From positions 15,280 to 79,279 of the IMG/VR virus record IMGVR_UViG_3300036985_001643: a stretch of 64,000 nt of DNA. One strand, 5' to 3'. The notes beneath the pieces are model-generated. The model was not told the origin of the DNA, did no database searches, and worked only from the letters and a program-made list of their open reading frames with translations. The position numbers and the translations under genes are program-made. Source of the stretch: a virus. Below, in pieces: positions 22,415 to 58,583 of this stretch; the stretch's first letter is position 1; every line of letters starts with the position of its first letter.

Positions 22415-25207
22415 ATGGCATTTACTCCCTATAGTACTCCAATACAATACGAATACAAACCGTTAAACTTAATGGGTTTCGCAGCTCCTTTAAGCGAAAT
22501 GCAAAAGGAATTTGATACTACTACTTCTGCAATTGACGAAGCAGATGTAGACTTGTCACATTTAGATTTAGGAAAGGATCCTGAAAAAGCTAAAGCTTTA
22601 AAAGAATTATATCGAAGTAAAACAGAAGAATTAGCTAAAAACTTATATACTTCTAAAAACTATAGACAAGCTGCGTCTAAGTTAAAAGAATTAAATCGTT
22701 TATTTCAAACAGATCCTGAAAAGTTAGCATTAGAAGCTAATTACAAAGCTAGACAAGAATATCATAAAGCTCAAAAAGAACGTATTGATAAACCAGGTGG
22801 TATTACTAGAGATCAATACTATGAAGATATTGCTCGTAAAGATAGGGAGTATGTCAGTAAAGAAGGAACAAATTGGAAAAACGATCCTAATTTAGAAACA
22901 GGAGATTATAATCTTTATGGTACTAAAGCTAGACTTGAAGACTTAGAAAAAGAATTTCAAGAAATTTCTTTTAAAGTAGCAAGTGCTGTATCTGGAGATA
23001 AACGTACAGGAGCTTTAAAAGAAATGGGAATAGATCCTGAGTTAATGGATAAACAGTATTCTCAAACAATCATTGATGAACGAGATCCTAAAAAAGTACA
23101 AGTTGCTGTAGAGAATTATTTAAAGACTTTACCAAGATTTAAAAATTGGGCATTGGAAGTTGCTGATTATAAATATGATGCTTTAGCACAAAACCCTGAA
23201 GCATTAAAAGAAAAAAATGATGCATTAGCTACTAGTGCTTTAAAAAGTATTGATGCTCAATTAGCTAGTTTAGAAAAATCTGCTAAAAAAGATAAAGCCG
23301 TTTTAAACAGTGATGAATATAAAGAATTAGTAGAGTTTAAGCAAGAGTTAGAGCAAGGTAAAACTACAGGAGAATATGATAATGATTTAATGTCTTCTTT
23401 GTATAAACAAGAACACTTAGGTAATGTTTACGACATGAAAGCATTAGGAGAAGTGTTTAAGTATAAAAACGTTGATGTTAACTACAGTTGGAGAGCTATA
23501 CCAAAAGAAGACACAGGAGATGGTGGTGACGGAAGTGATAATTCTTTTAGTTCAGAAACAGGATACTTTATTCCTAATTCTGAAGAAAAATGGTCAATTG
23601 ATGCTTTAGCTACTAATAAAAACAATAGTGCTAAAGCTCTATGGGGTGTTGTAGGAAAAGTAAACGATTTAGTAAGCGGTAATGTTAGAGCAGTAGTAAT
23701 GGGAGGTGATAAAAATTCTGCTTCTTATAAAAAGTTATTACAAGATCCTTCTGCTATTAGAGCAAGACAAGCACAATTACTTGGAGCTATTTCTGAAACT
23801 TTAGAAGGTGGAGGAGATTGGAAAGCCTTTAAAAATAAGGCTGCACAAAAAGGTCTTAAAATGGAAGACGGTAGAGCATATACTATTTGGAAAAGTTTAA
23901 CTAAAAACGGTAATCAAGGTATTGCTGATTTTAAAGCTTCTATAGATGCTACTGAAGAAGACGCTAATCAATATATTAATTCTCAAAAGTTATTAAACAC
24001 TATTCAAAAGAATGTAACTGAAACACAAGAATTTAAAAGTTTTGCTAATACATTAGGTTCATATGTACCTGGTGATACTGAATTAGGTTACAATTCAGGT
24101 ATAGGTCAAGATTACGTACCAAGTAGAGCTGATGAAGAACGTGATAAAAAAGCACAAAAATTATTTAACCCTGATTCATATAGTAAAGAAGCTTTAAATA
24201 AAATAGGTTTTATATCAGGATCATCATTTTCAAAAGCATTAGGAACTGTTTTCAAAGGATTTACTAAATACTTAAGTATGGATCAAGTGGCTCAATTACA
24301 TGGTTATAAAAATGCTTTAGACGCTGCAAATAAAGGATACGACTTTGCAGGGTTTAAACCTGTTATTAATGCAAAAGGAGAACTAGGAAGTACTAATATT
24401 ATTTGGGGTGATGCTAAATATACAGGAAAAACAGCTCCTCAAATATTTCAAGAAAAACAAAACGAAGTTTATAGTAAAGGATTAGTAGCTAATGAGATGT
24501 CTTATCGTTTTATTAATGATAAAAATTTAGATAAACAAATGTCTAAATTCTTTTTAAGTGCTGGAGACTTAGCTAGTTATGTACCTGCTTATAGTAAAAA
24601 TTGGAAAAATGTACCAGGTTTTACAGAGGAAGGTGGTTTAGCTGCAGGTACTAAATTAAACATTAACGAAAATAGAGCTCCTAAAATAGTAATGCACGGT
24701 AATCAAATGTTATACGAAATTCCTATTTCATACGAAAAAGATGGAGTATCTACTGAGACTACTGTTACTGTTAAACCTAAAAAAGGAATGAATGTCAGAC
24801 ACGATAAATTATTAAAAGATTTAGATTGGGCGTCAGGTGGAGGAACAGCTACAGAAGCTGCTGATAGTGAAACTAATACAATGATAAAAGCTATGAGATT
24901 TGATAACAAATTTCAAAACAATAATTTATCACCTCAATTAATACAGTCTATTGATGTAGCTAAAGGACAATCTCCTGTAGAGTTATTCTCTGCTCCTTTT
25001 AGTAATACTACAAAATTAGTAGTATACAAAGCGAATACTAATGGTACAGATCCTTCTTTAAACATAGCTCAAGTAGATAAAAATTCAGGAAAAGTATTAG
25101 GTTATCTTAATAACCCTAAAACGGGAAAACCTTTCTACACACACGCTGATGATCCAGAAGCTTACGTTGAAGTAAAAAATCTTATAATGCAAGCTTTAGG
25201 AGATTAA
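22415..25207 (+). CDS. Virion cargo/ejection protein 2
   Basis: 930 aa, helical N-terminus (Y.Y.PL..), no Cys seen; synteny within the cargo locus. Confidence 0.55.
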   Translation: MAFTPYSTPIQYEYKPLNLMGFAAPLSEMQKEFDTTTSAIDEADVDLSHLDLGKDPEKAKALKELYRSKTEELAKNLYTSKNYRQAASKLKELNRLFQTDPEKLALEANYKARQEYHKAQKERIDKPGGITRDQYYEDIARKDREYVSKEGTNWKNDPNLETGDYNLYGTKARLEDLEKEFQEISFKVASAVSGDKRTGALKEMGIDPELMDKQYSQTIIDERDPKKVQVAVENYLKTLPRFKNWALEVADYKYDALAQNPEALKEKNDALATSALKSIDAQLASLEKSAKKDKAVLNSDEYKELVEFKQELEQGKTTGEYDNDLMSSLYKQEHLGNVYDMKALGEVFKYKNVDVNYSWRAIPKEDTGDGGDGSDNSFSSETGYFIPNSEEKWSIDALATNKNNSAKALWGVVGKVNDLVSGNVRAVVMGGDKNSASYKKLLQDPSAIRARQAQLLGAISETLEGGGDWKAFKNKAAQKGLKMEDGRAYTIWKSLTKNGNQGIADFKASIDATEEDANQYINSQKLLNTIQKNVTETQEFKSFANTLGSYVPGDTELGYNSGIGQDYVPSRADEERDKKAQKLFNPDSYSKEALNKIGFISGSSFSKALGTVFKGFTKYLSMDQVAQLHGYKNALDAANKGYDFAGFKPVINAKGELGSTNIIWGDAKYTGKTAPQIFQEKQNEVYSKGLVANEMSYRFINDKNLDKQMSKFFLSAGDLASYVPAYSKNWKNVPGFTEEGGLAAGTKLNINENRAPKIVMHGNQMLYEIPISYEKDGVSTETTVTVKPKKGMNVRHDKLLKDLDWASGGGTATEAADSETNTMIKAMRFDNKFQNNNLSPQLIQSIDVAKGQSPVELFSAPFSNTTKLVVYKANTNGTDPSLNIAQVDKNSGKVLGYLNNPKTGKPFYTHADDPEAYVEVKNLIMQALGD

Positions 25208-25245: not shown

Positions 25246-28200
25246 ATGGCAAAGAAAAAAATTGTTCCCCCACCACCAAGTCCTGTTAGGTTACAGGCTT
25301 TATCTTTAGATACTAAATCAGATAAAACTTTAGGATATAATTCAGATATTATTGACGAAGTAGGTGCAGGAGAAGAGGCAGACAGTGGTGTTATGCAAAA
25401 ACACTACGCTCAAAAAGATGCTAATTTTTTTGATCCTTATGAGGATTATGTAGATAGAAAAACTTTACATGGTGGGCAATTTGATATAGAAGAATTAAAT
25501 ACTATTAGAGCAACTAATCAATCTAATTGGGAACAAGCAGGTCATGCTGTTGCTAGAGTTGCTACTAACATTGTACCTCAAATTATATCAGGGTTTGCTT
25601 CTATGGTAGATTTACCAGGTTATATAGACGCTGAACATGCTGCTAGTAATAAGATTGTCAATTGGGCAATGGATTTAAAAAAGGAAGTTGATGAAGATTG
25701 GTTTCCTATTTACGAAGAAAAACCTGGACAATCTATGAGTCTTTCCGATCCTGCTTGGTGGATGTCAAGAGGTTCAGGATTAGTAGAATCGGTAGGTTCT
25801 TTTCTTGCTCAAGGTTTTGGAGTAGGTAAAGTAGTTTCTTTAGGAGCAAAAGGAATAGGTAGTGTTTTACAAGGTAAGAAGTTATTCGCAGCTTTAGAGG
25901 CTATACCTGGAGTTACAAGTGGAGCAAACGTAGCTAAAAGAATAGGAGGAGCTACTCAAAGTTTAACTACAGCTGCAATGTTAAATCAATCTGAAGCTGT
26001 AATAGAAGCTACTCAAGTATTTAATGATACTTATAAAGCTAGACTAGACGAAGGTTGGGATTATGCTAAAGCTAAAAAAGCGGCTGCTGAAGCTGCTTCT
26101 ACTACTATGAATCTTAACAGGATTAATATCTTGTTAAACTTAAGTTCTGCTACAGCGTTCTTAAAAGGACAAAAGTATACTAGACAATTATTAAAAAACC
26201 CTACGTTAGGACATACTTCAAAAGAATTAGTAAAAGAAGGTTCTCAAGAAGCAGTTGAAGAGTTAATCAATCATGTTGCTTCTAAAGCAGGTATGGCTAA
26301 AGGAGCTGAGAAAAATTATACTTTTGAAAATGCTTTAAACGATATCCATTCTATGGAAGGTTTAGAAGCTGCATTTTTAGGAGCTATTGGAGGTATTGCT
26401 CAAACAGGTGGTACTAAAGCTTTAGAATACAGTAAGTATGGACCAGGAAGTACTACAGACGAATCAGGTGTTAAGATAAGTAAAGTACAAGATGCTCGTA
26501 ATAGATACCAACAACAACAAGAAGTTATTAACGAATTAAAGGATAAAGGTGTTAAAATCACAGATGCTTTAAATAGTGTTAAAGAACAACTTGTATTTGA
26601 AGAAAAATTAAATGCTGCTTACGCAAGTGGTAACGTAGAAGAGGTTAAAACTTTACACGCTCAAATGTTTGAGAATGTAGCAGCTAAACATTTTTCTGCA
26701 GGTACTACTGAAGTATTAGAAAACTTATTAAAAGCAGAGTCTCAAAAAGATCCTGAAGAAGTAGGACAAGACTATATTGATAGAGCTAAACAAGCTGTTA
26801 AAGATTTAAGAACCTTAGAAAACATCTATAACAATGCTGAAGAATACGCTAATGTAGATGAAGTATATAGAAATAGAGCTAGTAAATTAAGAGCAGAAAA
26901 AGTTGTTCCTGAGGCTACTACGTTACAAAAAGAATCTGAGTTCCAACTTAATCAAGAAGTTGACGCTATTGCTAAAAAACACATGTTTGATAGAGAGCGT
27001 CAAGTATTAATTAAGAAAAACGGAGTAGTAGTAGACACAGAAACTAAAACAGAGAAAGCTCCTATTACATATTCTCTTTCTGACTTAGAAAACAATACTG
27101 GAGACACTGATGCTAACAAGGCTGTATATGAGAAATTCTTAGCAGAAGTAAAAGCATTACCTTCTTATGAAAGTACTAATTTTTATACTGAACAATTAGA
27201 TGCTTTACAAAAGCAAATAAGAGATTTAGATAAAGATTATAAAAATATTACTTCAGATGCTTATCAAAAAACAGCTAAAGCTAAAGCAGCTGAAAAAACT
27301 AAAGTAGAACAACTTACTAAAGATTTACCTAAAGTATCTACTATCTCTGAAGTAGAAAAAATGAAAGAATCTACTACAGATAAAGACTTTCACAAAGCTG
27401 CTGATGCTAAAATCGAAGAGATCAAAAAGAGTAACGATGCTCAAGCTAAACAGAAGAAGACTCAAGCTACAGTTGCAGAGCTTAACACTAGAATAGAAAA
27501 AGCTACTGAAGAAGAATTAGAAGGGTTATTAGAAGAAATTAATAATGCAGAATTAAGTCAAACACATAAGACTAATCTACGTAACGCTTACGATAGAAGA
27601 GCAAGTATACTTAACGGTACACCTGTAGCTGTATCTCCTGAAGAAGAAAACCCTTTAGGTGCTTTTGGTTTTACTAATAATAACCCTAACGATACAGCAG
27701 AGGAAATAAAAAGAGAAGAGGAATCTCGTGCTACTAATCTTCCTAAGGATTTACCTAATCCTAAAACAGAGACTAAAGATGTAGAACAACAAGTTGCTGA
27801 TACAGCAACTAAGTTATTAGAAACAGATACTACTAGAGTTACAGGACAAGATACTCAAGGTAACTTAACTTATGCTTACGGTAAGTCTACAGAAGGTCAC
27901 AACTCTGGAGCAGTATTAAGTAGAGAGTTTACACAAACAGAAAATGGAGGAATAGTAACAAGAGAGGAATCTACAGATGATATAGAAAATCTACAAGTGT
28001 TAGATCCTGAAGTATTACAATCAGGTACTCCGTTAATAATGGAAGTAGATACTGATTACATAGGTCCTAAGTATGATCCTTCTTCTAGTACTAGAGAAAC
28101 TACTTCTTGGGTAGATAGATTAGCAGTGTTAAAAGCTAAAGCTGAACAACAAGGTATTCCTTTAACACAGTTAAAGGAGTATATTGCTGAAGTACCTATT

Positions 28201-31200
28201 AAGGTAACTATGGAAGACGGTACTACTGTATTCTACGTACACGATAATGCTTGGTTTAGAGAAGAAAACCTTGACAATACACCTGATGCTATTGCTCAAG
28301 ATAAAGCTAACAACTTTAAAATCAGAGAACAAATAATCAAAAAAGGTAAAGTTACTACTAAAGTATCTTATAAAAGTTTTGGTCATTTATTCAGAGCTTA
28401 CGATGGCTCTAAGATTACTACTTCTGAAGCAATGCCAGATAGTGACTTAGCGTTATCTGTTTGTAAGAATGAATCTTTAGATTTTACAAAAGGTAAACTA
28501 TTACCAACTACTTTACAAGAAGGTAGAACTTATGCAATAGTACCTGTAGGACCAGATACTTACTTACCTGTTCCTTTAGAAAGAGCTCCTATTACTCAAG
28601 AGATAGTTGATTCTATTATGATTGCTGTAGAGGCTCACCTTTCAGGTGACACTGAGAATCCTGTTGTACAGGCTATCGGTAACTCTAACTTAGGCTTAGA
28701 CATTACTACTACTGAAGGTTTAAATAAATATGTTCAACAATTTATCTACTTGTATCCTACAGAGAAACAAGAAGGTATTGAGAATCTTTTAATTAACCAA
28801 GGTGGTTCTAAAAGTACTTTGTCTTCTAGTAGACCTATTATTGCAATAACAGCAACAGGTATCGAGTTTGGTAAACCTGGTGTACAAATGGGTTCTTTTA
28901 CTAATCAAGATGGTGTTAAAGTACAATCTTTTGCTGTAGTTCTTTCTAAGAACTTTAAGAAAGATGCTAAGACTACAAAAGGTTTAGCAGCGTTAAGAGC
29001 TATCTTAGAAAGTGGTAATATACTTTCTCATACTCGTTTAGAAAACTTACAAAAGAATCTTGACAGTGTTATCTTATTAGATAACCAAGGAGCTACTAGA
29101 ACTATTAAGTACTCTCAACAAGTAAAAGATTCTACAGTTACTAATCTACGTTCTATTAATATAGGTACAGAGGAAGCACCTAAGTATGTGTATACTATAC
29201 AACCTACTATTAAGTTTGATGTAGCGTTTGCTAAATTAGATAAAGTTAAAAAAGCTAGTTCTACTACTAAGAAAAAAGTTACTGTTCCTAAAGTTACTGT
29301 AACTCCTGTTGCTACTAAAACTACTATTCCTGTTACTACTACAGTTGCTGTATTACAACCAAATGATCTTCAACTTAATGTATCTGCTACTACTAAAAAA
29401 GCAGGTATGGATTCTATTACAAAGCAAGATTCTAGCATAGAGTCATTTGATGAAAATAAGTTTATCAGAGTAACAAAAGCTAATGCAGATGATGTTAATG
29501 GTAAATATTATGCTATTGATAATGGAGTACTAAGAATAAGAATTAATGGAAAAGATGCTGTTTCAGGCAGAACAGGAGGAGCAACCCAAATAAGTGTTAA
29601 AGTCCCAGTAGGATTTAATGAAAAAGTCTTTGCGGAAAAACTTAAAAACATAAGTCATAAAGACGGTGTTACTACTGATAAAGCTGTACAACAAGTTGTT
29701 AATGATGTTAGAAAAGCAATCATAGAAGCACAATCAACTTCCGCAACTACTTCTACTATAGAAGCTAAGAAAGCTGATATAGAAAGAAGAAGACAGACAG
29801 GAACTAATGTTAGAGGTACAACTTATAAAGGAGAAACTACTGAAAAAGATGAATTAAAAGTTACTAAGTATTCTGAGTTTTTTCCTGATGGAAAAAGGAT
29901 CTCTAAAGGAGGTAGAATAATGTTACCTGCTGAATTTATAGAAGAGTACAATATAACTGATCAAGATTATTTAGATAGTCTTGAAGGAGCTACAGAAATA
30001 AGAATATATGAAGTAAGAGTAGGAAAAGATGGTAGATCAGGTATAAGCATACAAGGAACTTTTCCAGAAGGAAACATAGAAACGGATGTTGCTGGTACAG
30101 AACTAACTGCTTTAAGTGAAACTCGAGATGACATAGAAGCTCAAAAAGCTGATGTAGAAAGAAGAACTACAAAAGTAATATCTTCAGAAATTGTAGAAAA
30201 AGGGAACAGAAAAGGTCAAACAAGAACAGTAACTCAAACTAATTCTATAAAAGATGTAGAAGGTACAATAGTAAGTGTAACAGAATATGAAGCAAAAGTT
30301 GGAGATACTACTATCACACTGGGAGGTAAATCAATGACTGTTAAAGAGTTCAAAGAAGAATTTCCATTAGATGAGGATTATGAAGAAATATTTGCAAGTT
30401 GGCCAGATTTAAATGATGATACAATAATTACAGTAAGAAAAGTAAAAAGAACGCCTACTAACTCAAGGTATAAAACTGTTGTGAATATTTTCAACCCTGT
30501 GTTAGGGGGTGAGATGGATATAACTATTAAAAAAGATGATACTAAATATGATGCAGAACTAGCTGCTTTAAAGCAACCTGTTGCTGGTAAACAAGTTCAG
30601 ATAGATGATATAGAAAGAAGACAAAGAGTGGCTGATATAATTACATCTCAGTTTGAATTAGGTGTTGAACTTCCAAAAATTTTAGAAACATTAGCTGAAC
30701 AAGGTTATGTAGAAAAGATTAATAATAGTGCATTTTTTAAACAAAGTGTTGGTAGAGATGCTATAGTTTTTAATATTGATGGTGCAATAGTACCTATATA
30801 TAGAAGCTCAGAAGGAACAAGTAGTAAAACAAAAGGTAAGTGGTATCCTTTTTTCTTTAATGCAGGAGACTGGTTAGTTAAAGGAATGGCTGATAGTTAT
30901 AAAGATGGTTACAATAATCCTATTATTAAACAAATATTAAATAGTTTAAATACTAATTATACCTATGACAAACCAATTGCAAAAGTAAATGGTAACAATA
31001 AAGAGGTATTAGTATTATTAGGTCTTGAAGGATTTGATGAAGAAAATAATGGTATCTATGATTACCAAAATTATCTTGCAGCATCTATAGTATTAAAAGA
31101 TTGGCAAAGTAAATTAGGTAATATTGATGTGTCAGGTTATCAAGAGTATCTTGATGGTGCATTATCTGGGTTAATAAAAGCTAATCCAACTTTAAAATCA

Positions 31201-34200
31201 GAAATAGAAAGTGCATTTAAAACTGCATCAGATAGTTTTGCAGAACTAGCTGCTTTAGAACAAAGCACAAGTGTTGTAAAAACTCAAAAAACAGAATTAG
31301 AGAAAGTAGAACAGGTTAAAGATGTAGTAATAAATGGAGAAAAATATTCATATTATCCATTAGCTGTAAGCCAATCTTCAGGAGCATCTGTGTTAATAGC
31401 AAACAAAAAATCTATTTTAATATCAGACGATTATGGAAATATTTCTGAGTTAGAAACAGCTGAAGAAAAGATTACAGAAAACGATATTACAGCAGGTAAT
31501 ATTTTTTACATGACTGTAGAAAAAGGAGTTCCTAGAATTGTTTCAATAGAAGAAAGTTTACCTGAATTAGGTAATGAAAATGGTTTAAGAACTTATTCAA
31601 TGAGAATAACTTCTTATGACGCAGGAGGATCAAAAGAAATAGAGTCAGGAATTGGTGATTTAGGAAAAATAAAATCATTAGAAAGTAGTATTGGTAAAAG
31701 TGATCTTAGTAAAAAAGAATTAGCTTCAGAGTTAAATAAACTAGGAGTAAAGAAATTAAAAGTAAAGCAAGGACTTATTGTACCTACAATACCTTCAATT
31801 ACAAATCAAGGAAACTTTGAAGAAGATAATACTATTGAGTTACCTAACGATTTAAAGATAGATGCTGCTATTACTTTTACATCTAGTAATGTTTTTCAAA
31901 AAACTTTTAAATCTATAACTACAGCAATTGTAGCAAGTAAGTTGCAATTTACTAAACCTGGTAGATTTATAACTAAAGAAGGAACTTTAACTAAAGAAGG
32001 TGAAGAAATATTAAAAAAATTAACTTCTACTGCTTCTCCTAAAAATTTAAGAGAGTTAGATGCTTTAATTTCTAGCAACTTAGATAAACAACTTTGGGAA
32101 AACGAAAAAGAAAATAGTATAAACTCTATTGTTTTAGACGCTATTACTCAAAATAAAAAAGTAGCTAATTCGTTATTAAGTACAGGAAGGGTAAAATTTA
32201 ATTCTGAATATAGTAATGCATTTGTTGCTACTAGAGAAACTATTAGAGCTAAAAACAAAGAAAATATACAACAGTCCTTTAATAATATTCCAAGTTTAAA
32301 AGAATTAAATTCTCCTGCTTTAGAACAAACTACAGAGCAAGTTATTGCTAACTCTCCTATTCCTTCTGCTGAACAGCAAGTTGAAGAAGCTATTGATCCT
32401 GAAACAATCATAGAACAAGAGGCTATTCAAATGTTAGCTGATCATACAATTGAAGAAATTAATGGATTCTTAGACAATATTAATATAGGTTTAATCACTG
32501 AAGAAGATTTACAAGGACAATCTTTAGAACAAGTTAAACAAGCAATTAACAGAGCTAAAGAAATACATAAAAAGAATAGTGAGAAGAAAACAACTTTCCA
32601 ATTTCCTGGAAAAAAGAGTATTACCGTTGATGGTAACACTAAAGATTCTACGGATATCTCAGAGGATACTTTTGATTATTTAATTAGTCCTCTAAACGAA
32701 GAACAAGTAGACGAGTTAAACGCTGAGGTTGAAGCAATGATTATTAGAGGTGTAGACTCTGAGACACAACGTTCTTTAATTGCTTATATATCTGCAGAGA
32801 TTATTCAAAAAACTCTTGCTGAGAAAGAAGTAGGTGGAGCGAGAACAGTGAAGGTTAAAGATATAATGGATACCAATAAAGAATACTTTATTGCCTTAGC
32901 AGAGTACTACAAGGAAAACGGTTTACCTAACAAAGCTAAAAGATTAGAAGCTGTTGTAGAACAGTTTGATAAAGTAGATAGGTTAGTACAACAATACATG
33001 AGTCTTCTTACTACAGGTACAGTAACTTCTAAACCAAAAACAGAAAGTGAAGAATCAGTAGGATTAGAGAAGACTTTATACACTGATGATTGGGCGTTTA
33101 CTATCGATTCTAAATCTACAGCTTCTGGAGATTTAAAGAAATTCTTTGCTAATATACAAGCACAGGATAAAGACGGATTAAAACAAAACAGTCTAGGGTT
33201 AGAAGAGATAATGCCTTTTGATGCAGTATACGATACTCTTCACGAGATATTAGCTAACAAACCTGCTGACTATACAACAATGATGGAGATTCTTAAGTTG
33301 TATGCAGAGAATTTCCCTTGGATAAACTCTGTAGTAGAATCTATAGAAAAAGCTCCTGAACGTATTAAAAACGAATTTGTTTCAGATATGGCTAAACACC
33401 ATATAGAGATGTCGTTTGTAATGTGGGAAAGAAACAAAAACGGTACTTATAACCTACAACGTTGGTCAAGTAACTCTGCATCTAAAGAGAATAGATTAAG
33501 AGCGATGTGGCAATCTAACTTAAGAGGTGTAGGTACTTCTAGTAACATTGTAGTAGTTAATGACGAAGACGAATACGTATTTGACCACGTAGTTGTAGAT
33601 AGATTAATAACTCAAGCAGAGAAGTTTGCTGAGGATCCTTCTGTGGTTACTAACGATGATATTGCTAATTGGTTAGGTCAATTAGGTATTGTACTTGCTG
33701 ATGACACTTACGATGACTTACGTAACGGTTTATTCAACAATAAAGGTAAGAAAACCTTTAACCAATTATTTACTCATTCTCAAGGGTTATTTAAAGTACT
33801 TACTGCTAAATTAAAAACTATCAGTAATGGTAGACCTAAACCAGGAAAACCTAATACTAACTTAGTAGATAACGCTAATTTAATGACGGATAGTGTTGTT
33901 AAAGCATTGGCTAAATTAGACGCTACTAATAGTCTTAATACTTCTTCTAACTCTTTCCAATCGGGTGGTAAAACTGTTTACTCTTACGGTAACAATAACT
34001 ACTTAGTAAACCGTATGAGAGACTTAACGGCTCACAATGGAGAAAAGTTTATTAACGAAGAACTTATTAAGCATTTACAAGATACTTCTTTTACTAAAGA
34101 TAGTTTATGGTTAAAAGATATTACTTCTACAGATGCTTTAGGAGAAGCTGCTAGAAGAGAGTTAGGGTTAAACTACTTATCGTTAGAAGCGTTAAAGAAA

Positions 34201-36171
34201 AAGTTTACACCTTCTCAAGATGATCGTAAACTAAACAACTTGACACCTGCAGAACACGAGGTAATTAAGTTAGGTTTATTCTTAAATAATTCTGGACAAA
34301 CAATAGGTAAAGAAACTAGACGTAGTGTACAATTCTTTTATCCTACAATGTCGGATAAAACTACTATGTTGAGTATCACTGCTTTAGCTAGAGAGTTAAC
34401 ACTTGAAGAAGGAGTAATATCTAAAGACAACATCAAGTTGTTATTTGATGCTTTAGTACAACCGGAAATTAATCGTATTAGAGATAAACAGGCTTCTGAC
34501 ATTAAAGGTTACGAACCAAACTACTTTTACTTTCTTCCTGCTCTTAATACTCACCCTATTACTATTAATGGTAAAGAGAAAACAGTGTTAGACTTTGTTA
34601 AAGATAAAGACGATAGTATTTACTCACAAGAGTTTAAAGATCAAGTAGAGGCTAAAATTAAAGAAACATACGAACAGTTAGTAGAAGACAAATTAAAAGA
34701 CTGGAAAACTTTAGGTATTGGTAAAACAGTTAAAGACAATAAAGGAAGAGTATCTGAACAATATATGTTTTTAAATTCTTCTTACATGGCCGATGTAGCT
34801 AAAGGTATAGGAGAAGCTAAAGTTAAATATGCAGCAATGGATTACATATTTAACAGTTTAATAGCTAACTCTGAATCGTTTAAGTTATTTGCTGGAGATC
34901 CTGCGTTGTATGCTAAGTTTAAAAAAGATAAAACTTTACAACAAAACCTTGAAGAAACTTTTATCAATATTGGTAAACGTCTTGCTGGAGATATTGCTCC
35001 AGGTATAGAGTTAGCCAACAGTACTAACAATAAGTACCTTCAAGTATTCTTAGAAGATAAGGAGTTAAACAGTAACAATGTTAACGATTCTGTGCAGTTA
35101 GAGTACTTCTCTAAGATAATGAAGGACTATAAGAAAAACTATTCAGGGATAGAAGGATCGGATGCTCAAGAGTATACTACTTGGCAAGAACACATCTACG
35201 TAATGAAACAATTAGGTAGAATTACAGATAACCAATTTGAAGTATTTAATCGTAAGTTGACTGCTCAAACAGATAAAGCTGCTAAAGGTATTCCTTTAAG
35301 CAAAGCTGATAAACTTACATACGAAGAGTTAGGTTTAGTAATGCAACCTATCAAACCTGTATACGTAGGTAACATCGCTGTAACAGATGACAACGTAGAC
35401 AGAAGAATCTATATTAAGTCTTCTAGTTTCCCATTGATTCCTGAGTTAACTGCAGGTCTACAAATAGAGAAAGTACGTAAAGCTATAGAAAAGTTTGAAA
35501 AAGAAGTAGGTGGTAATATATCTTCAGATGGTAACCCTGCTTTTGTTAGAGCTTCTTTTGGTACAGCCAACAAAGTAGGAGCTGTTAAAAACGCAGTAAA
35601 ACTATTTGATGATAATGGTAACGTAAATGATAACTTAGAAATTAAAGAAGAAAACTCTTTAGTACTAAATCGTTCAAACTTCCGTATCCAACAAGACGTA
35701 CCTTACAAAAGAGAAAAGAACGAAATCAACGTAGGTTCTCAAGAGATGAAGTTATTGTTCGTTAACTTATTAGACGTACAAATCGATGAGAATCACACAG
35801 GGGAACAATTGTTAACTAGTTACAATCAAGCATATAAAGAATTGTACGAATATGCTAACGAAAAATTAGCAGAAAGATTAGGATTAGTTACCGAGACTAC
35901 TTCTACTCCAGAGTTAGTAAGTTTGTTAGAAACTCCTACAACTACTGCTGTTGCTGATACTCACGCATTAAAAGAATCTTTGAAAGGTAAATCTACTGTA
36001 CAAAATGTAATAGCTAAACAAAAATTCTCTGAAGAAAAAGGTGAAAATACAATAGATAGAGTTAAATTTATAGACAAAAACTTTGACAAGATTGTAGCAT
36101 CTTTACTTAAAGACGAGCAAATTAAAGTCTTATTCCAAGACGAGAATAACCAAAATAAAAAATGTGAATAA
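25246..36171 (+). CDS. Giant virion cargo protein (3641 aa) carrying the N-terminal part of the crAss-type virion RNA polymerase
   Basis: C-terminal ~1000 aa has KRLAG, DAQEY, QPIKP..YIKSSSFPL, NKVGA, RIQQD, GSQ.MKL motifs as recalled for crAss RNAPs; N-terminal hydrophobic Gly/Ala segments; central repeat-bounded inserts. Confidence 0.75.
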   Translation: MAKKKIVPPPPSPVRLQALSLDTKSDKTLGYNSDIIDEVGAGEEADSGVMQKHYAQKDANFFDPYEDYVDRKTLHGGQFDIEELNTIRATNQSNWEQAGHAVARVATNIVPQIISGFASMVDLPGYIDAEHAASNKIVNWAMDLKKEVDEDWFPIYEEKPGQSMSLSDPAWWMSRGSGLVESVGSFLAQGFGVGKVVSLGAKGIGSVLQGKKLFAALEAIPGVTSGANVAKRIGGATQSLTTAAMLNQSEAVIEATQVFNDTYKARLDEGWDYAKAKKAAAEAASTTMNLNRINILLNLSSATAFLKGQKYTRQLLKNPTLGHTSKELVKEGSQEAVEELINHVASKAGMAKGAEKNYTFENALNDIHSMEGLEAAFLGAIGGIAQTGGTKALEYSKYGPGSTTDESGVKISKVQDARNRYQQQQEVINELKDKGVKITDALNSVKEQLVFEEKLNAAYASGNVEEVKTLHAQMFENVAAKHFSAGTTEVLENLLKAESQKDPEEVGQDYIDRAKQAVKDLRTLENIYNNAEEYANVDEVYRNRASKLRAEKVVPEATTLQKESEFQLNQEVDAIAKKHMFDRERQVLIKKNGVVVDTETKTEKAPITYSLSDLENNTGDTDANKAVYEKFLAEVKALPSYESTNFYTEQLDALQKQIRDLDKDYKNITSDAYQKTAKAKAAEKTKVEQLTKDLPKVSTISEVEKMKESTTDKDFHKAADAKIEEIKKSNDAQAKQKKTQATVAELNTRIEKATEEELEGLLEEINNAELSQTHKTNLRNAYDRRASILNGTPVAVSPEEENPLGAFGFTNNNPNDTAEEIKREEESRATNLPKDLPNPKTETKDVEQQVADTATKLLETDTTRVTGQDTQGNLTYAYGKSTEGHNSGAVLSREFTQTENGGIVTREESTDDIENLQVLDPEVLQSGTPLIMEVDTDYIGPKYDPSSSTRETTSWVDRLAVLKAKAEQQGIPLTQLKEYIAEVPIKVTMEDGTTVFYVHDNAWFREENLDNTPDAIAQDKANNFKIREQIIKKGKVTTKVSYKSFGHLFRAYDGSKITTSEAMPDSDLALSVCKNESLDFTKGKLLPTTLQEGRTYAIVPVGPDTYLPVPLERAPITQEIVDSIMIAVEAHLSGDTENPVVQAIGNSNLGLDITTTEGLNKYVQQFIYLYPTEKQEGIENLLINQGGSKSTLSSSRPIIAITATGIEFGKPGVQMGSFTNQDGVKVQSFAVVLSKNFKKDAKTTKGLAALRAILESGNILSHTRLENLQKNLDSVILLDNQGATRTIKYSQQVKDSTVTNLRSINIGTEEAPKYVYTIQPTIKFDVAFAKLDKVKKASSTTKKKVTVPKVTVTPVATKTTIPVTTTVAVLQPNDLQLNVSATTKKAGMDSITKQDSSIESFDENKFIRVTKANADDVNGKYYAIDNGVLRIRINGKDAVSGRTGGATQISVKVPVGFNEKVFAEKLKNISHKDGVTTDKAVQQVVNDVRKAIIEAQSTSATTSTIEAKKADIERRRQTGTNVRGTTYKGETTEKDELKVTKYSEFFPDGKRISKGGRIMLPAEFIEEYNITDQDYLDSLEGATEIRIYEVRVGKDGRSGISIQGTFPEGNIETDVAGTELTALSETRDDIEAQKADVERRTTKVISSEIVEKGNRKGQTRTVTQTNSIKDVEGTIVSVTEYEAKVGDTTITLGGKSMTVKEFKEEFPLDEDYEEIFASWPDLNDDTIITVRKVKRTPTNSRYKTVVNIFNPVLGGEMDITIKKDDTKYDAELAALKQPVAGKQVQIDDIERRQRVADIITSQFELGVELPKILETLAEQGYVEKINNSAFFKQSVGRDAIVFNIDGAIVPIYRSSEGTSSKTKGKWYPFFFNAGDWLVKGMADSYKDGYNNPIIKQILNSLNTNYTYDKPIAKVNGNNKEVLVLLGLEGFDEENNGIYDYQNYLAASIVLKDWQSKLGNIDVSGYQEYLDGALSGLIKANPTLKSEIESAFKTASDSFAELAALEQSTSVVKTQKTELEKVEQVKDVVINGEKYSYYPLAVSQSSGASVLIANKKSILISDDYGNISELETAEEKITENDITAGNIFYMTVEKGVPRIVSIEESLPELGNENGLRTYSMRITSYDAGGSKEIESGIGDLGKIKSLESSIGKSDLSKKELASELNKLGVKKLKVKQGLIVPTIPSITNQGNFEEDNTIELPNDLKIDAAITFTSSNVFQKTFKSITTAIVASKLQFTKPGRFITKEGTLTKEGEEILKKLTSTASPKNLRELDALISSNLDKQLWENEKENSINSIVLDAITQNKKVANSLLSTGRVKFNSEYSNAFVATRETIRAKNKENIQQSFNNIPSLKELNSPALEQTTEQVIANSPIPSAEQQVEEAIDPETIIEQEAIQMLADHTIEEINGFLDNINIGLITEEDLQGQSLEQVKQAINRAKEIHKKNSEKKTTFQFPGKKSITVDGNTKDSTDISEDTFDYLISPLNEEQVDELNAEVEAMIIRGVDSETQRSLIAYISAEIIQKTLAEKEVGGARTVKVKDIMDTNKEYFIALAEYYKENGLPNKAKRLEAVVEQFDKVDRLVQQYMSLLTTGTVTSKPKTESEESVGLEKTLYTDDWAFTIDSKSTASGDLKKFFANIQAQDKDGLKQNSLGLEEIMPFDAVYDTLHEILANKPADYTTMMEILKLYAENFPWINSVVESIEKAPERIKNEFVSDMAKHHIEMSFVMWERNKNGTYNLQRWSSNSASKENRLRAMWQSNLRGVGTSSNIVVVNDEDEYVFDHVVVDRLITQAEKFAEDPSVVTNDDIANWLGQLGIVLADDTYDDLRNGLFNNKGKKTFNQLFTHSQGLFKVLTAKLKTISNGRPKPGKPNTNLVDNANLMTDSVVKALAKLDATNSLNTSSNSFQSGGKTVYSYGNNNYLVNRMRDLTAHNGEKFINEELIKHLQDTSFTKDSLWLKDITSTDALGEAARRELGLNYLSLEALKKKFTPSQDDRKLNNLTPAEHEVIKLGLFLNNSGQTIGKETRRSVQFFYPTMSDKTTMLSITALARELTLEEGVISKDNIKLLFDALVQPEINRIRDKQASDIKGYEPNYFYFLPALNTHPITINGKEKTVLDFVKDKDDSIYSQEFKDQVEAKIKETYEQLVEDKLKDWKTLGIGKTVKDNKGRVSEQYMFLNSSYMADVAKGIGEAKVKYAAMDYIFNSLIANSESFKLFAGDPALYAKFKKDKTLQQNLEETFINIGKRLAGDIAPGIELANSTNNKYLQVFLEDKELNSNNVNDSVQLEYFSKIMKDYKKNYSGIEGSDAQEYTTWQEHIYVMKQLGRITDNQFEVFNRKLTAQTDKAAKGIPLSKADKLTYEELGLVMQPIKPVYVGNIAVTDDNVDRRIYIKSSSFPLIPELTAGLQIEKVRKAIEKFEKEVGGNISSDGNPAFVRASFGTANKVGAVKNAVKLFDDNGNVNDNLEIKEENSLVLNRSNFRIQQDVPYKREKNEINVGSQEMKLLFVNLLDVQIDENHTGEQLLTSYNQAYKELYEYANEKLAERLGLVTETTSTPELVSLLETPTTTAVADTHALKESLKGKSTVQNVIAKQKFSEEKGENTIDRVKFIDKNFDKIVASLLKDEQIKVLFQDENNQNKKCE
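29758..31260 (+). repeat. Dispersed repeats (IEA.KA)D(I/V)ERR and (A/T)EL(A/T)AL bounding variable domains
   Basis: gat(a/g)tagaaagaaga at 29776, 30151, 30607; cagaacta(g/a)ctgcttta at 30098, 30554, 31241. Confidence 0.85.
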
Positions 36172-36644
36172 TGGAAAAATTACTTACTGACGTAGAGCAA
36201 AAAGAATTAAATAAGTTTGGTAAATTAGAGTTAACAGCTTCACAAGCTTACTTACACCTTACTAATAGAATGAAGACATTGGGTTACTTTGGTGCAGAGA
36301 AGTTCTTTGCAGGTGAATCTAACGATGAAAGAGAGCACTATGCTAAACATGAAGACTTTATGAACAAGTTTAATTGTGAATTAAGTGTTGAAGCATTGAG
36401 CCCTATTGCTTCTGATGTTAGTAACATTAAAGAAGCTTTAGAAATGGCTTACCAAATGGAGGTAGACTTATTAAACGAGTACGAAAAGTCTTGTAAACTT
36501 CCAGAGTTATCAATAAAAGTTGTACTTTTGTTACAAGAGTTTGTTGAAATACAAAGTGGTGCAGTTGGAGAATACGGAGATCTATTAGCTAGATTAACTC
36601 TAACAGACAACATGTTATTATTCGATCAAGAACTAGGAAACTAA
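36171..36644 (+). CDS. ftn: Ferritin (ferroxidase centre apparently intact)
   Basis: E20, Y27, E53-x-x-H56, E97, Q128 spacing of a ferritin four-helix bundle; G.F.GA.KFF and EYGDL motifs. Confidence 0.85.
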   Translation: MEKLLTDVEQKELNKFGKLELTASQAYLHLTNRMKTLGYFGAEKFFAGESNDEREHYAKHEDFMNKFNCELSVEALSPIASDVSNIKEALEMAYQMEVDLLNEYEKSCKLPELSIKVVLLLQEFVEIQSGAVGEYGDLLARLTLTDNMLLFDQELGN

Positions 36645-36654
36645 AAGTACAATT

Positions 36655-39600
36655 ATGGCTTGTCAATATTTTGTAAACGGAGAATGGATCTCTGAGGAAC
36701 AGTTTAAAGAAGTTTTAAACAATGGTTTATTAGATAATTTAGTAGCCAACGGTACTGTTAAAGAAGAAGGATTTCCCGTAGATAATACTAAACTCCTTAA
36801 AACTGAGACAGTTACTACTACTAAAACAACTGTACCTGTAGAAAAACTAGCAGCAATCTTAGCAAAAGAAGTGAGTACTCGTTCAGGGTATCCATTAAAC
36901 ATGTTAAGTGCTCTAGAGTTGAAAGAAGACAAGTCAGACTTTAAAATTCCTTTATGGGCTTCTCCTTACGCAAGTAAGTTTGAGTCTTTATTAACTTCTT
37001 TAGTAAGTAATAAAGTAGTTAAACAAAAGTTTGCTGGTACATCAAGTGTATTAGGTTCGGAAGAAGGGTTTAGAATTAAACAAGGTGACGAAGCAGCAGG
37101 TAGTTTAAAGGACTCCTCTATTGTATTTTCAGACAACTTTGATCCTGAGAAAGGTTTACAACCGATGAGGGTAGATCCTAAAACAGGTAAAATATTACCT
37201 GCTCAAATAATGTTACCTTTTAAGTTTAGAGACGAGTCAGGTAACATATTGTTTATCAACGATTTCCTTAAATTAGATTCTTCAGGAAGACCTTTAAGAA
37301 CTCCAGACGGAAGAGTAACTATTGACGATAGTAAATTACCTGCTAAATTAAGACAGTTATTTGGTTTCCGTATTCCTACACAGGAGCGTAACTCTATGGC
37401 TGCTGTAGAAATAGTAGGGTTTTTACCTGAAGCAATGGGAGATTTAGTACTAGCTCCTAGAGATTTTACTAAACAGATGGGTTCGGATTTTGACGTTGAT
37501 AAGTTGTACAGTTACTTGTATAACCACTTCTATAAAGACGGTAAATTATACACTAATTTCCCAAGTGATAAGAAGACTATTAAAAAACTAACAGATGCTG
37601 CTAAAGAACATTTAGCTACATTGAAAAGTTCTTTAAAACTAAATAGTGCAGAACAAGCATTGTTAAATGCTTACATTGATAACAAGTTAGAAAAAAACGA
37701 TGATAACGATCAAGACGAGTTGCTTACTAAAGCTACTACTCTTATCGCTAGACTTACTAATTCTCCAATAATGGAGGAGATAGAAAACGTTACTAACGAT
37801 TTATCTATTTACAACAGAGCTTACAAAGCTTCTCGTCAAAATAAAATATTAGACATTCACTTATCAGTGATGTTGAGTAATAACCCTGAGGTTATTAAAT
37901 CTATTATTGCATTAGATTCCTTTGGAGATTTTGAGCAATTAGCTCAAGACTTATATAAAGTAAGAAGTGAGCGAGGTTTAATTCCTCCTATTACCACTAT
38001 TCTTTCAGATACTTATCAAAGAACTAAATACATTAACGCTACAGCAGGTAAAACTGGGGTAGGTTCTTTCTCTTTAGATTCTACTTTTAATGCATCTGCT
38101 CAAGGTAAAGAGTTGACCATCATCAATATGGACGATGAGACTCAAACAAATGTATTTGGTACCCCTATAGAACCTAAGAATCCTACTGCTGCTGAAGTAT
38201 TAGAAGCTAATATGACTGTTGCTGCTTTTGGAACTAACGTTTCTAAAGGAGATTTATCAGACAAATATACACTACGTTCTAGAAACTTAATCAACAAAGC
38301 TAAAGAAGAAGGTAGAGAACTTACAGAGGAAGAAAAAGATTCTTTAAAGATGAAGTCTACTATTATTAGATCTTTACAATCTACAGCTGTGGATAATGAA
38401 AAAGCTCAAATATTAGATAAACTTAACATCAACGATCAAACTATGGATGCTGTTAGAGCCCTTACTATATTAGGGTTTGAAGAGAAAGAAATAGTAGGAT
38501 TGATAACACAAGAGATTATTTGGGAGTTTACTGCAGCATTAAAGGATAACGGTTCTTCACTGACTCCTTTCCAAGCTAACGCTGCAGAAACTTTATTTAT
38601 TGATTTAGTAAAGAAATACGATCCTGAAGGTAAACTAGCAGAATTAAAACCTTACGAATTAGAAGCTTTACAAAGTGCTACTAGTGAGTCATTAATGAGT
38701 GACATCAATACTCAAACGTTACAAGAGTTAAGCGTAGGACCAACACCAGATGCTAATCTTAGACAGTTAGCTGCTTTAGCTAAATTCCTTAAACTTACTC
38801 AAATAGGTAAAGATATTAAGACCTTACAGTCTACTATAAATACTGATTCTAAAGGTGTTCCTAAATCTTTAGTAGAAACAGATGCTAAAGTAAAACAAAT
38901 AGAAAGGTTAGCTGCTTCTAACATCTTTAATGCTACTAAGTTGTTAGGAGAATATGAAGGATCTAAATTAGTTACACCTACTACTCTAAATGGTTTTGCT
39001 TCTAAATACGGTACTATGTTTGCAGATACTATCTACAAACAATATTTCCCTTATCATACTACAGGTTTTAAAGTATTAGTAGATGAGTTACTACAATATA
39101 TACCTAAAGGTAAAAATGCTTCGTTAACTAAACAAGCAGAGTTACAATTAGAGTTAATGGACGCTGTTAAGTCTTTCCTTTATGGTAATGCTAATACAAA
39201 CTTGTTTACAGAAAACCCTGATAGTGAACGTGCTAGATTGTTTATAGACACTAAAACTAACAAAAGTTTAGCTACTATACTACAGTCAGTTTCTGAAGAA
39301 AAGTGGTATACTTCTAATGGTTTCCTTAATAAGTTATCGTTAGACCAACAAAAGAATGGTCAAGTTTCTAGAGTAAACTTCGAATCTGCTTCAGGAGAAA
39401 ACTTAGACGAAAGAGATATCTATGACGGGTTTAACTACTTGTTATCTAAGAATTTCCCTATTGGTACTTTTAACGGTATCGATTATACTTCTCGTATGTT
39501 GGCTCAAGATTTAGTAGCTTCAGCGTTCTTAGAAGGAGGTCAACAAGGTTCTAAACAATACTTGAAGTATGTACCTACTGCTTACCTTAAAACTATAGGT

Positions 39601-48891: not shown

Positions 48892-49217
48892 AGTTTTAAT
48901 ATTTCTTCAACCATTGTTTCTATTGTAAGAAATTCTTTTTCTTCTTCTTCCTCTTCGTATTCGTCTAGAGGTTTAAATCTATGTAAAGAAAATGCAGGTT
49001 CTTGTTCTCTGTTTAATAAAGTGATAAACACTGTAGGATTCTTTAGTTCTTTAAGAAGCAATCCAGGTACTATATCATCATTATCTAATAGAGCTCTTAC
49101 TGTATACGTAGTACCTTCTTTAACCCAATAAGGAAAAGTTACATACGTAAAAGATTCTTTACCAGGTTTAACCTTATCGTCTATACAAACTACTTTCTGT
49201 CCTACTCTAACACTCAT
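48888..49217 (-). CDS. Hypothetical phage protein (SH3-like, VGQKVVC..D motif)
   Basis: VGQKVVCIDD...G..YTV...F...RF.PL pattern common in phage small proteins. Confidence 0.55.
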   Translation of the reverse strand: MSVRVGQKVVCIDDKVKPGKESFTYVTFPYWVKEGTTYTVRALLDNDDIVPGLLLKELKNPTVFITLLNREQEPAFSLHRFKPLDEYEEEEEEKEFLTIETMVEEILKL

Positions 49218-49870
49218 AATAATTTCTCTAATATTAATACTTTCTCTACTTTATCGACTAGATCTTTAATATTACTATCATTGATTATAGTATATTTAAA
49301 CCTAGCGACATCTAAAGAACACTCAGAAGGATGTTCAGGTTTAGAATAATCTTTACCGTATAGTAAACCGTCTTTGTCTCTACGTATAACTTGTATCGTA
49401 ATACCTTTTAACTTCTCTACAGCTTTTAACTCATTAGGAAACCTTGTATCCGTAATAATCCAACTATCATCTTTAGTATAACTTTGTACTAGAGAGTTAA
49501 CCCATACGTTAATATGTAAGTGATCTCTCATAGCATTAGTTCCTAAACGTTGTAAAAACTCTCTTACAGTCATTTGTTTACTAAAACCATGTTGGTCTAC
49601 GTAATTCCATATTTCAGGTAGATAAGATTCTTTATAAGTCTGAGACTCTAAATCTTTACGTGTACAACCTAACATTAGACACGCAATGTCTTTTAGTTTA
49701 TCAGCAAACTTCTTGATTTCCCAAGTAGATTCTTCTAATAAAGGTTCTACGTCACCATTATTTATAAAATCTACTATAACCTCTTTAGGATAATCTAGAA
49801 GTAGTAATCTGATAATAGAAGCTGTCAAGTCCTTACCGTGTGAGATTCTTGCTGAAATACTAATAATCAT
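49214..49870 (-). CDS. Deoxynucleoside monophosphate kinase
   Basis: IISISARISHGKD P-loop, FADKLK, REFLQRLGT, IITDTRFPNE, HPSE. Confidence 0.85.
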   Translation of the reverse strand: MIISISARISHGKDLTASIIRLLLLDYPKEVIVDFINNGDVEPLLEESTWEIKKFADKLKDIACLMLGCTRKDLESQTYKESYLPEIWNYVDQHGFSKQMTVREFLQRLGTNAMRDHLHINVWVNSLVQSYTKDDSWIITDTRFPNELKAVEKLKGITIQVIRRDKDGLLYGKDYSKPEHPSECSLDVARFKYTIINDSNIKDLVDKVEKVLILEKLL

Positions 49871-50004
49871 TCTTCTTCTCTAATATCGATTAAAGTTCCT
49901 GCTATAAAATCCTTAACAGCTTTTTCTATAGAAACAGCTTCTACAGCTATCCATTCTTTATCCTCTCTTCCGTGAGGTACATAAGTTACTATAAACGTTT
50001 TCAT
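49867..50004 (-). CDS. Small hypothetical protein (45 aa), not in the ORF track
   Basis: MKTFIVTYVPHGREDKEWIAVEAVSIEKAVKDFIAGTLIDIREEE*; ATGA overlaps at both ends. Confidence 0.65.
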   Translation of the reverse strand: MKTFIVTYVPHGREDKEWIAVEAVSIEKAVKDFIAGTLIDIREEE

Positions 50005-51395: not shown

Positions 51396-51404
51396 ATTTA
51401 ACGA

Positions 51405-57523: not shown

Positions 57524-57526
57524 TGT

Positions 57527-58525: not shown

Positions 58526-58529
58526 AAGG

Positions 58530-58563: not shown

Positions 58564-58583
58564 GTAAAATTAGCAATTATATA

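Follow-up and report, generated by a model that had tools for sequence, protein, structure and literature searches.

Giant proteins that combine many domains were described from phages and conjugative elements as polyvalent proteins (Iyer, Burroughs, Anand, de Souza, and Aravind, 2017; PMC5512222). They hold 2–15 unrelated domains, probably enter the recipient cell together with the DNA, and differ in their domains from one relative to the next; the virion RNA polymerase is among the listed phage-type polyvalent domains (PMC5512222). In this paper we looked at P0001, a giant protein encoded by a 3641-codon open reading frame (ORF; 25246–36171, plus strand) in a 64,000-nucleotide (nt) stretch of viral DNA, which is called the window from here on (positions 15,280–79,279 of IMG/VR record IMGVR_UViG_3300036985_001643). 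Its middle part holds an array of five units, numbered 0–4, and three of these consist of a payload framed by a short opening and a short closing motif (opener and closer, together the adaptors). Like a polyvalent protein, P0001 keeps five units and two backbone halves in one ORF of 3641 residues, and the units are unrelated to each other except for units 1 and 2. The domains of polyvalent proteins belong to a conflict repertoire (peptidase, ART, nuclease, helicase, methylase, NUDIX-like and similar). Orthologues of P0001 hold NUDIX and P-loop kinase domains at the array position and the next ORF has a Dda-like helicase; the window units themselves show only a weak NADAR-like match. Unlike the present work, the polyvalent-protein paper describes no fixed hot spot, shared adaptor, DNA-level conservation or swaps between near-identical genomes, and term searches of it gave no mention of linkers or of crAss-like phages (PMC5512222). 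A further difference is that most payloads here match no described family and that the adaptor is not shared with conjugative elements, as it is nearly absent from prokaryote genomes.

It was also shown that unrelated phage proteins share fragments and that near-identical phages can differ by one swapped domain, a mosaicism that was attributed to recombination (Smug et al., 2023; PMC10684548). That survey covers tail fibres, lysins and replication proteins, is agnostic about the mechanism and has no dedicated boundary element; neither "linker" nor "breakpoint" appears in it (PMC10684548). In crAss-like phages, giant proteins associated with the RNA polymerase (RNAP) were found in phiCrAss001 virions by mass spectrometry, and they must partly unfold in order to pass the tail (PMC10172136). 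The protein with the DFDxD motif is called virion-packaged in a preprint (bioRxiv 10.1101/2020.03.07.982082). The order of the giant ORFs in the window and a DFDVD motif fit the transcription block known from crAss-like virion RNAP and cargo proteins, such as phi14:2 gp66, phiCrAss001 gp47/gp49/gp50 and gp32 of the Flavobacterium psychrophilum phage FpV4; unlike FpV4 gp32, the protein here is split in two ORFs with a 157-codon ORF between them. Integron cassettes resemble the array in logic only, with arrays from a shared pool, a conserved recombination element for each unit and one fixed site. Integrons, however, move whole genes by a tyrosine recombinase and attC/attI sites, whereas the units here are domains in one ORF and would move by homologous recombination.

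That phages have giant multidomain virion proteins and that they shuffle domains is already known; the way in which domains change places without breaking a 10-kb reading frame is not. In a literature search that was incomplete, no description was found of a shared opener and closer adaptor or of its nucleotide-level conservation, nor of a fixed hot spot in a crAss-like polymerase-associated giant or of unit swaps between near-identical genomes; in the same search crAss-like phages were linked with polyvalent proteins in one passing mention only.

A variable segment at a fixed point

A search with the downstream backbone of P0001 gave about 120 orthologues, and two backbone anchors were projected onto 118 of them. 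In all 118 a variable segment lies at the same point, after ..NIGTEE.PK.VYTIQPT..F...FA and a low-complexity linker, which is present at this position in every orthologue. The segment is 0–1044 residues long and has 110 distinct states among the 118 proteins; the window array is the longest, and many orthologues have an empty site. FpV4 has an empty site as well, with no room for cassettes and no adaptor motif. In other orthologues the segment contains NUDIX (PF00293) and P-loop kinase/AAA_33 domains, according to precomputed Pfam assignments, and zincin-like HExxH segments that were recognized by eye. As for the window units, unit 1 occurs in three orthologues, unit 2 in four and unit 4 in two, and units 0 and 3 in none. 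Rather than the same inserts in the same order, the relatives thus hold other units and other orders at the same site. Window 29233–32343 is a hot spot, in our reading for in-frame domain cassettes, placed in a disordered linker between two conserved halves of the giant protein. Clustering of the hot-spot contents by windows was tried as well; it chained them into one large component and was dropped.

The hot spot of the window consists of the linker, the five units and a terminal joint (Table 1). An earlier reading of this DNA, made from the letters alone (the sequence-only reading), had described three domains here that open with D(I/V)ERR and close with (A/T)EL(A/T)AL, and the motifs are found where it placed them: D[IV]ERR at residues 1511, 1636 and 1788 and [AT]EL[AT]AL at 1618, 1770 and 1999, and nowhere else in the protein. 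The same reading had noticed that the boundaries are repeated in the DNA. We found three copies of GATRTAGAAAGAAGA in the 64-kb window (29776, 30151, and 30607; 0.01 expected from shuffles), whilst GCAGAACTAGCTGCTTTA is exact at 30553 and 31240 and has two mismatches at 30097 (0.02 expected); both are far above chance, and a repeat finder yields the same families. The flanking inserts that it had noted on both sides, our units 0 and 4, also proved to be real units, the left one recurring in three giants with unrelated backbones and the right one in two orthologues. The adaptors of the three framed window units are somewhat worn in comparison with the canonical forms that are described below.

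The payloads had been called mutually unrelated, and this stands for all pairs but one. Units 1 and 2 are probably distant paralogues, because their cores without the adaptors match in hhalign (probability 85.6%, E 5.6e-6, 53 columns) and their predicted strands and helices follow in identical order. The remaining payload pairs show no similarity in BLAST, and the units are not copies of one structural repeat.

Arrays of near-identical phages

The DNA of the array region has no match in 50,697 deposited phage genomes, and no relative turned up when viral contigs were scanned with the downstream backbone as a single protein; the array-bearing protein itself is known from one contig. A close relative came from a scan of metagenomes. 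This contig, L140, encodes the protein P0068, and its flanks of the array match the window with 94.8% and 97.0% identity. The stretch between the flanks, at window 29332–32326, shows no similarity: 2995 nt with five units stand in the window against 1150 nt with two other units in L140. Unit one of L140 is a coiled-coil plus a domain and ends with KKELAALEQTTEQV, and unit two (8765–9247) has the P-loop GHPGIGKSH, ends with ..LLPKTTEQV and belongs to no Pfam family. A 30-nt stretch at the terminal joint of the window (32315–32344) is found exactly at the internal unit junction of L140 (8736–8765). In a third protein, P0069, the flanks of the array are 99.4% and 98.6% identical to those of P0068. 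These two proteins have the first unit in common and differ in the second, which in P0069 is a 28%-identical paralogue of its own unit one; the breakpoints, at the protein level, are in the closer KKEL[AN]AL and in ..EQTTEQ... The window protein, P0068 and P0069 are thus a trio with 94–99% identical backbones and three different arrays.

Two further pairs bring the exchange down to one unit. L050 and L207, which encode orthologues of the array protein and are 99.4–99.7% identical in DNA, differ by one swapped hot-spot payload of 79 nt versus 292 nt; identity reaches the last codons of the opener, with a cluster of three mismatches within the opener, and resumes at AATGCTAAATATGATGCAGAACTAGCTGCTTTAG, which encodes NAKYDAELAAL. 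L018 and L200 (96% identical) have one unit versus two, with the same opener and closer. In the near-identical pairs the breakpoints coincide with adaptors or with the linker, and the phages differ by whole units or whole arrays. This agrees with the earlier proposal of an in-frame array of exchangeable units without an integrase. Its idea that the short repeats are the recombination joints held in part: the repeats match the exchange breakpoints, and the left breakpoint between the window and L140 lies instead in the Thr/Val/Lys-rich linker. These comparisons of sequence show that phages gain, lose and exchange units, and that the breakpoints fall in the adaptors or in the linker.

A 211-nt deletion that distinguishes L044 and L196 (99.98% identical) was also considered as an adaptor event and was rejected, as it breaks the frame and lies inside an upstream domain. 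The deletion (L044:5262–5467) breaks the giant ORF of L196, with 16 stops downstream, and L196 is either a defective variant or an assembly error.

The same units in unrelated giant proteins

With the array as query, 64 other giant proteins (2000–5300 residues) were found, most of which have only one unit in common with P0001 and nothing else, and the BLAST matches to the window units begin and stop at the adaptors. Four of the five units (0–3) recur in giant proteins with unrelated backbones, units 0 and 3 only in such non-orthologues. For example, copies of unit 0 with 63–64% identity are found in P0056, P0057 and P0060, which share no backbone with P0001, and in all three the unit is preceded by an AELAAL closer plus a linker. 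For units 1 and 2, identity is 66–87% in orthologues whose backbone anchors show 41–50% identity, and reaches up to 93% and 86%, respectively, in proteins without backbone similarity; only three of the 24 other giants that hold unit 1, with up to 93% identity, are orthologues. Unit 3 was looked for as a free-standing protein of 128–408 residues among 5.8 billion clustered proteins and none was found, with one contig-end fragment as the only hit.

Several of the array-sharing proteins longer than 4000 residues weakly match the polymerase region of ORF 36655–43752 and are thus very distant polymerase-type giants. The unit-3-bearing giants of 2100–3000 residues (P0003–P0016 and P0020) have a common N-terminal backbone of their own that is unrelated to the window protein by BLAST, and they make up a second large family of cassette hosts.

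Adaptor motifs and their DNA

In the fetched loci, the canonical unit has an opener ..DIEAKKADIE[RK]RRQEEL, a payload of 20 to ~265 unrelated residues and a closer ..(K)INAKYDAELAALE. Short Thr/Pro-rich linkers join one unit to the next. The shortest units have 56 residues, that is helix, loop and helix only, and among the relatives of units 1 and 2 the opener stands in varying registers or has lost a part. With a profile built from 14 canonical units we found 495 representative proteins (50% identity clusters) at E <=0.001 among 1.84 billion, 60 of them at <=1e-10, and most of the 495 are 1500–6700 residues long. The 12-residue closer was found in 106 places in IMG/VR and in 5 of 185,579 prokaryote species genomes, all five being metagenome bins from unrelated phyla. 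Given this near-absence from prokaryote genomes, the system is one of uncultured lytic phages and not of prophages or conjugative elements. The five bins, which encode INAKYDAELAAL (L152–L156), are labeled Nitrososphaeraceae, Paceibacteria, Cloacimonadota, Pontiellaceae and Polyangiaceae, an implausible spread, and the matches are most likely mis-binned phage contigs.

The adaptors are also conserved in their DNA. A degenerate scan for YDAELAAL separated two classes of sites, 76 of the tail-fibre type and 40 of the adaptor type. The adaptor-type sites lie in giant ORFs with 34% G+C, and the 24-mer at window 30547–30570 is exact in 17 of the 40, which all come from viral contigs other than the window, where codon usage in these ORFs would predict 0.27%. 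The tail-fibre-type sites (..VQAYDAELAALAGLTSAA.., 51% G+C) have the identical peptide in a different context and in short ORFs, and there all synonymous codons are used, so that they serve as a natural control for free codon choice. For the closer peptide INAKYDAELAAL we compared 79 contexts in which the preceding 25 residues are less than 50% identical. The Ile codon is ATC in 50 of the 79, versus a usage of 0.10 (P 2e-29); in AELAAL the first Ala is GCA in 65 (usage 0.33, P 5e-19) and the first Leu is CTA in 40 (usage 0.10, P 4e-19). Over these contexts the mean pairwise nucleotide identity is 0.904, where 0.815 is expected, and the commonest 36-mer makes up 13.9% instead of 0.009%. The opener codons are biased as well (ATA 33/38 versus 0.39; GCT 34/36 versus 0.55). 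Opener 1 of the window (39 nt, 29757–29795) is 95–100% identical to isolated islands of 37–39 nt in dozens of other viral contigs, and 49 of 231 fetched loci have an exact copy of the 21-mer of closer 3, GCAGAACTAGCTGCTTTAGAA. Selection that acts only on the peptide leaves this identity unexplained. It is explained by frequent copying between genomes, through recombination or gene conversion at the adaptors, or by selection on the DNA itself.

The tail-fibre-like look-alike repeat (L005–L124, e.g., L031:1857–2065) reads ..LGL.IGT.VQAYDAELAALAGLTSAADK.PYFTGSGTA.. and lies in short ORFs, sometimes twice per ORF. It is much commoner than the adaptor and would contaminate a motif census.

Payloads

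The five window units gave no family above threshold in Pfam, PHROGs, PADLOC or PDB sequences, except for unit 3, which matches phrog_32390 (no known function; E 4e-14); unit 3 gave no usable match in the protein atlas. Ten payloads of other phage loci have no Pfam family either. Unit 4 has a weak NADAR-like match at ~31894–32193 (Pfam NADAR E 9e-4, under the curated cutoff; phrog_1017 E 5.6e-6), and its atlas neighbours include NADAR clusters (0.82–0.84); we take this likeness as a lead only. AlphaFold2 models were made for units 1 and 2 together, with a predicted local distance difference test (pLDDT) score of 50 and a core of ~70 in unit 1, and for unit 3, with a score of 49. A fold search with the model of units 1 and 2 gave no match at a Z of at least 5. 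By analogy, the payloads may act as effectors, as the sequence-only reading had proposed.

Proposed mechanism and alternative explanations

The explanation that we favour, with a probability of roughly 75%, is a cassette hot spot with in-frame exchange that is bounded by the adaptors. In this mechanism, homologous recombination over adaptors of 25–40 nt would exchange units during co-infection. Annealase and exonuclease pairs of phages act on short homologies. The phage has its own Sak4-like annealing protein, which is plausibly the candidate engine of such short-homology recombination, and an exonuclease as its candidate partner, and the two would plausibly drive the exchange. Each exchange would leave the 10.9-kb reading frame intact, since the adaptors are all in the same frame and lie at domain boundaries in a flexible linker. 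The protein and its payloads would be packaged in the capsid and leave it together with the DNA on the way into the host, because FpV4 gp32 is annotated as a virion structural protein and RNAP-associated giants of phiCrAss001 are present in virions; the array would then be a changeable set of accessory domains, present from the first moment of infection.

A more ambitious form of this explanation is a dedicated domain-exchange system. There, the adaptors would be kept identical across a whole community of crAss-like phages as the substrate of phage annealases that swap payloads in frame during co-infection, their helices would clasp the ends of any payload, make it tolerable in the giant ejected protein and let it refold after the tail, and the units would be a pool of domains for takeover or anti-defence in the first minutes. 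We hold this form tentatively, at somewhat less than even odds. If it is true, it would be a protein-level counterpart of gene cassettes, with several hundred payload families, mostly unknown, as a community pool.

Several observations weigh against adaptor-bounded exchange, or narrow it. Between the window and L140 the breakpoints are in the linker (left) and at ALEQTTEQV (right), and neither is in KADIERR or AELAAL proper; unit two of L140 is flanked by a 15-nt direct repeat (ACTACAGAGCAAGTT, TTEQV) and not by canonical adaptors, as if it had been inserted into the terminal joint. Some units travel as blocks, as P0002 has units 1, 2 and 3 in unchanged order, and units 1 and 2 are neighbours in the 107-kb viral contig IMGVR_UViG_3300042865_000182. 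Unit 4 is as diverged as the backbone and may be old at this site. The codon sample was taken from contigs that were chosen for the peptide, and kinship between them was controlled only by requiring unrelated upstream payloads. Opener and closer may pair as the helical stalk that the sequence-only reading had proposed, and they are predicted to be helical in both models, yet a pLDDT of 50 and 49 is too poor to judge helix pairing. It could also be that breakpoints are seen at adaptors only because other in-frame joints were selected against. Recombination is deduced from the comparison of sequences, and the packaging of the array protein likewise from homologues.

One alternative is that the adaptors are kept for a role of the protein, as a helical clasp that brings the ends of an inserted domain together, as a site where a peptidase of the virion or of polyvalent proteins cuts, or as a packaging or ejection signal, and that recombination is incidental. 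The strong conservation of the peptide motifs over hundreds of proteins would fit such a role, as would the 56-residue units, which resemble helix-loop-helix hairpins, and the helical prediction of the adaptors in both models. It was proposed that zincin-like peptidase domains cut polyvalent proteins into functional units (PMC5512222). This alternative can also account for breakpoints, as only joints at domain boundaries would survive, and some breakpoints do lie in linkers and not in adaptors. A role of the protein does not, however, fix synonymous positions, including rare codons such as ATC and CTA with 10% usage, when the tail-fibre peptide uses all codons, and it leaves the isolated 37–39 nt islands of 95–100% DNA identity unexplained. 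We therefore find it unlikely as the whole explanation, although the two roles of the adaptors are compatible and not exclusive.

Adaptor-bounded exchange has also to be compared with two explanations that involve no traffic of cassettes between phages. The units could be diverged copies of one structural repeat that was amplified in place and passed on by vertical descent only. Unit ends do share motifs, units 1 and 2 are probable distant paralogues and the two units of P0069 are 28% identical, but beyond units 1 and 2 the payloads have no similarity, their identity in proteins with unrelated backbones exceeds that of the orthologous backbones, phages that are 99% identical differ by whole units and many orthologues have an empty site; this origin is very improbable. 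The array could instead be an assembly chimera, in which short shared repeats join different phages. Exact repeats of 18–39 nt in many co-occurring phages, as the adaptors are, are a classic cause of chimeras, and the window protein comes from a single contig. Against this, the reading frame is open over 3641 codons, both flanks are 95–97% identical to an independent assembly, another protein has units 1–3 in this order and a second contig has units 1 and 2, differing arrays occupy the site in more than 100 independent assemblies, and repeats of less than 40 nt are shorter than reads. We give a chimera hardly any credence.

Two kinds of mobile element were considered and rejected. No unit has a Hint or intein family at E <=0.1, and the unit ends are helical with Asp/Ile/Glu and Leu, not Cys/Ser...His-Asn, so that they are not inteins. 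An integron-like element does not fit units that lie within one ORF, and there is no integrase match, neither in ten large minus-strand ORFs at 49214–62497 (Pfam) nor in the plus-strand ORFs (PHROGs).

A shared adaptor that is conserved in DNA would offer a concrete and testable mechanism for in-frame domain exchange. The opener and closer motifs can serve as a search handle that delimits hundreds of uncharacterised domains, apparently carried into the cell at the start of infection, and so give a catalogue of candidate anti-defence and host-takeover domains for crAss-like phages, most of which are uncultured in spite of their abundance. The adaptor may also be useful as a natural design for placing foreign domains in packaged phage proteins.

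The array in its host protein and genome

The coordinates of the array, of its host protein and of other features in the window are collected in Table 1.

Table 1. Features of the window that bear on the array, in order of position.
Feature	Window position	Strand	Evidence and remarks
N-terminal backbone, residues 1–1329, ends ..YTIQPTIKFDVAFA	25246–29232	+	Conserved; residues 911–1325 match FpV4 gp32 1282–1686
Thr/Val/Lys-rich linker, opens the hot spot	29233–29358	+	Left breakpoint versus L140 ~29313–29331; blastn identity ends at 29331
Unit 0, residues 1372–1504, without canonical opener	29359–29757	+	No family match
Opener 1, IEAKKADIERRRQ	29758–29796	+	Repeat finder, motif scan
Unit 1 payload, ~100 residues, beta-rich	29797–30096	+	In 24 other giant proteins
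Closer 1, TELTAL, degenerate form	30097–30114	+	Motif scan
Opener 2, IEAQKADVERR	30133–30165	+	Repeat finder, motif scan
Unit 2 payload, ~126 residues	30166–30546	+	In 23 other giant proteins, 4 of them orthologues, 66–86% identity
Closer 2, YDAELAAL, pan-phage consensus DNA TATGATGCAGAACTAGCTGCTTTA	30547–30570	+	Motif scan
Opener 3, DDIERRQ, shortened	30604–30624	+	Ten BLAST matches begin exactly at residue 1788
Unit 3 payload, ~205 residues, mixed alpha/beta	30625–31236	+	In 18 other giant proteins, 0 orthologues, <=81% identity
Closer 3, FAELAALEQ	31237–31263	+	Motif scan
Unit 4, residues 2007–2355	31264–32310	+	In the orthologues P0071 and P0086 (36–46% identity), where it comes straight after the linker
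Terminal closer-like joint SPALEQTTEQV, right array breakpoint	32311–32343	+	L140 identity resumes at 32327
C-terminal backbone	32344–36171	+	phrog_16227 "virion structural protein", E 2e-79; residues 2623–3549 match FpV4 gp32 1899–2886
Next giant ORF, DFDVD and Dda-like helicase	36655–43752	+	Continues the FpV4 gp32 homology
PD-(D/E)XK exonuclease, exonuclease VIII-like	52042–53061	-	phrog_412, E 1.2e-29; Pfam DUF3799, PDDEXK_1
Sak4-like single-strand annealing protein	60002–60670	-	phrog_2872, E 1.5e-57; Pfam AAA_24

The source record is a 79-kb viral record with an estimated completeness of 62%. The window has a G+C content of 33% and giant co-directional ORFs in series (1432, 1474, 930, 3641, 157, 2365, and 1379 codons); after these comes a replication block, which the opposite strand encodes, and the phage is a crAss-like phage of aquatic Bacteroidota. 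The nearest cultured relatives are the F. psychrophilum phages FpV4 and Fpv1–3 together with Cellulophaga phages (tblastn, 34% identity over 526 residues, E 3e-67). The N-terminal backbone of P0001 is 35–57% identical in the orthologues and 94% in P0068 and P0069, in which the C-terminal backbone is 95–96% identical. The arrays of P0069 and P0070 finish, like that of the window, with ..LEQTTEQ... No solved structure has a sequence match to the array-bearing protein.

FpV4 gp32 (4287 residues, annotated as a virion structural protein) aligns with ORF 25246–36171 and then with ORF 36655–43752, the former being the counterpart of its N-terminal two thirds. The sequence-only reading had placed the array inside an RNAP-bearing protein, and this part has to be corrected: ORF 25246–36171 has no DxDxD motif in a polymerase context, and the catalytic DFDVD is located in the next large ORF, at residue 278 of ORF 36655–43752 (window 37486). 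The DYDID of FpV4 gp32 lies at the same position, beyond the equivalent of ORF 25246–36171. Because both ORFs together align with the single FpV4 gp32 and DFDVD is in the second, the array-bearing protein is the N-terminal partner of a split crAss-like virion RNA polymerase and not the catalytic chain. The 157-codon ORF at window 36171–36644, which separates the halves that correspond to one FpV4 protein, has no PHROG at E <=1e-5.

Within the array, window 30001–32000 (units 2–4) has the lowest G+C (0.300) and the highest GC skew (0.263) of the whole window; this slight oddity of composition fits a foreign origin. A 425-residue ORF at window 53557–54834 (minus strand) matches RIIB lysis-inhibitor families at residues ~250–350 (phrog_609, E 4e-26). 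Upstream of the array protein, in ORF 22415–25207, ~430 nt (window 24037–24470) fall under the blastn threshold against L140, with flanks that are 90–95% identical. Since both proteins can still be aligned there and are similar in length, this stretch is a fast-diverging patch and not a cassette.

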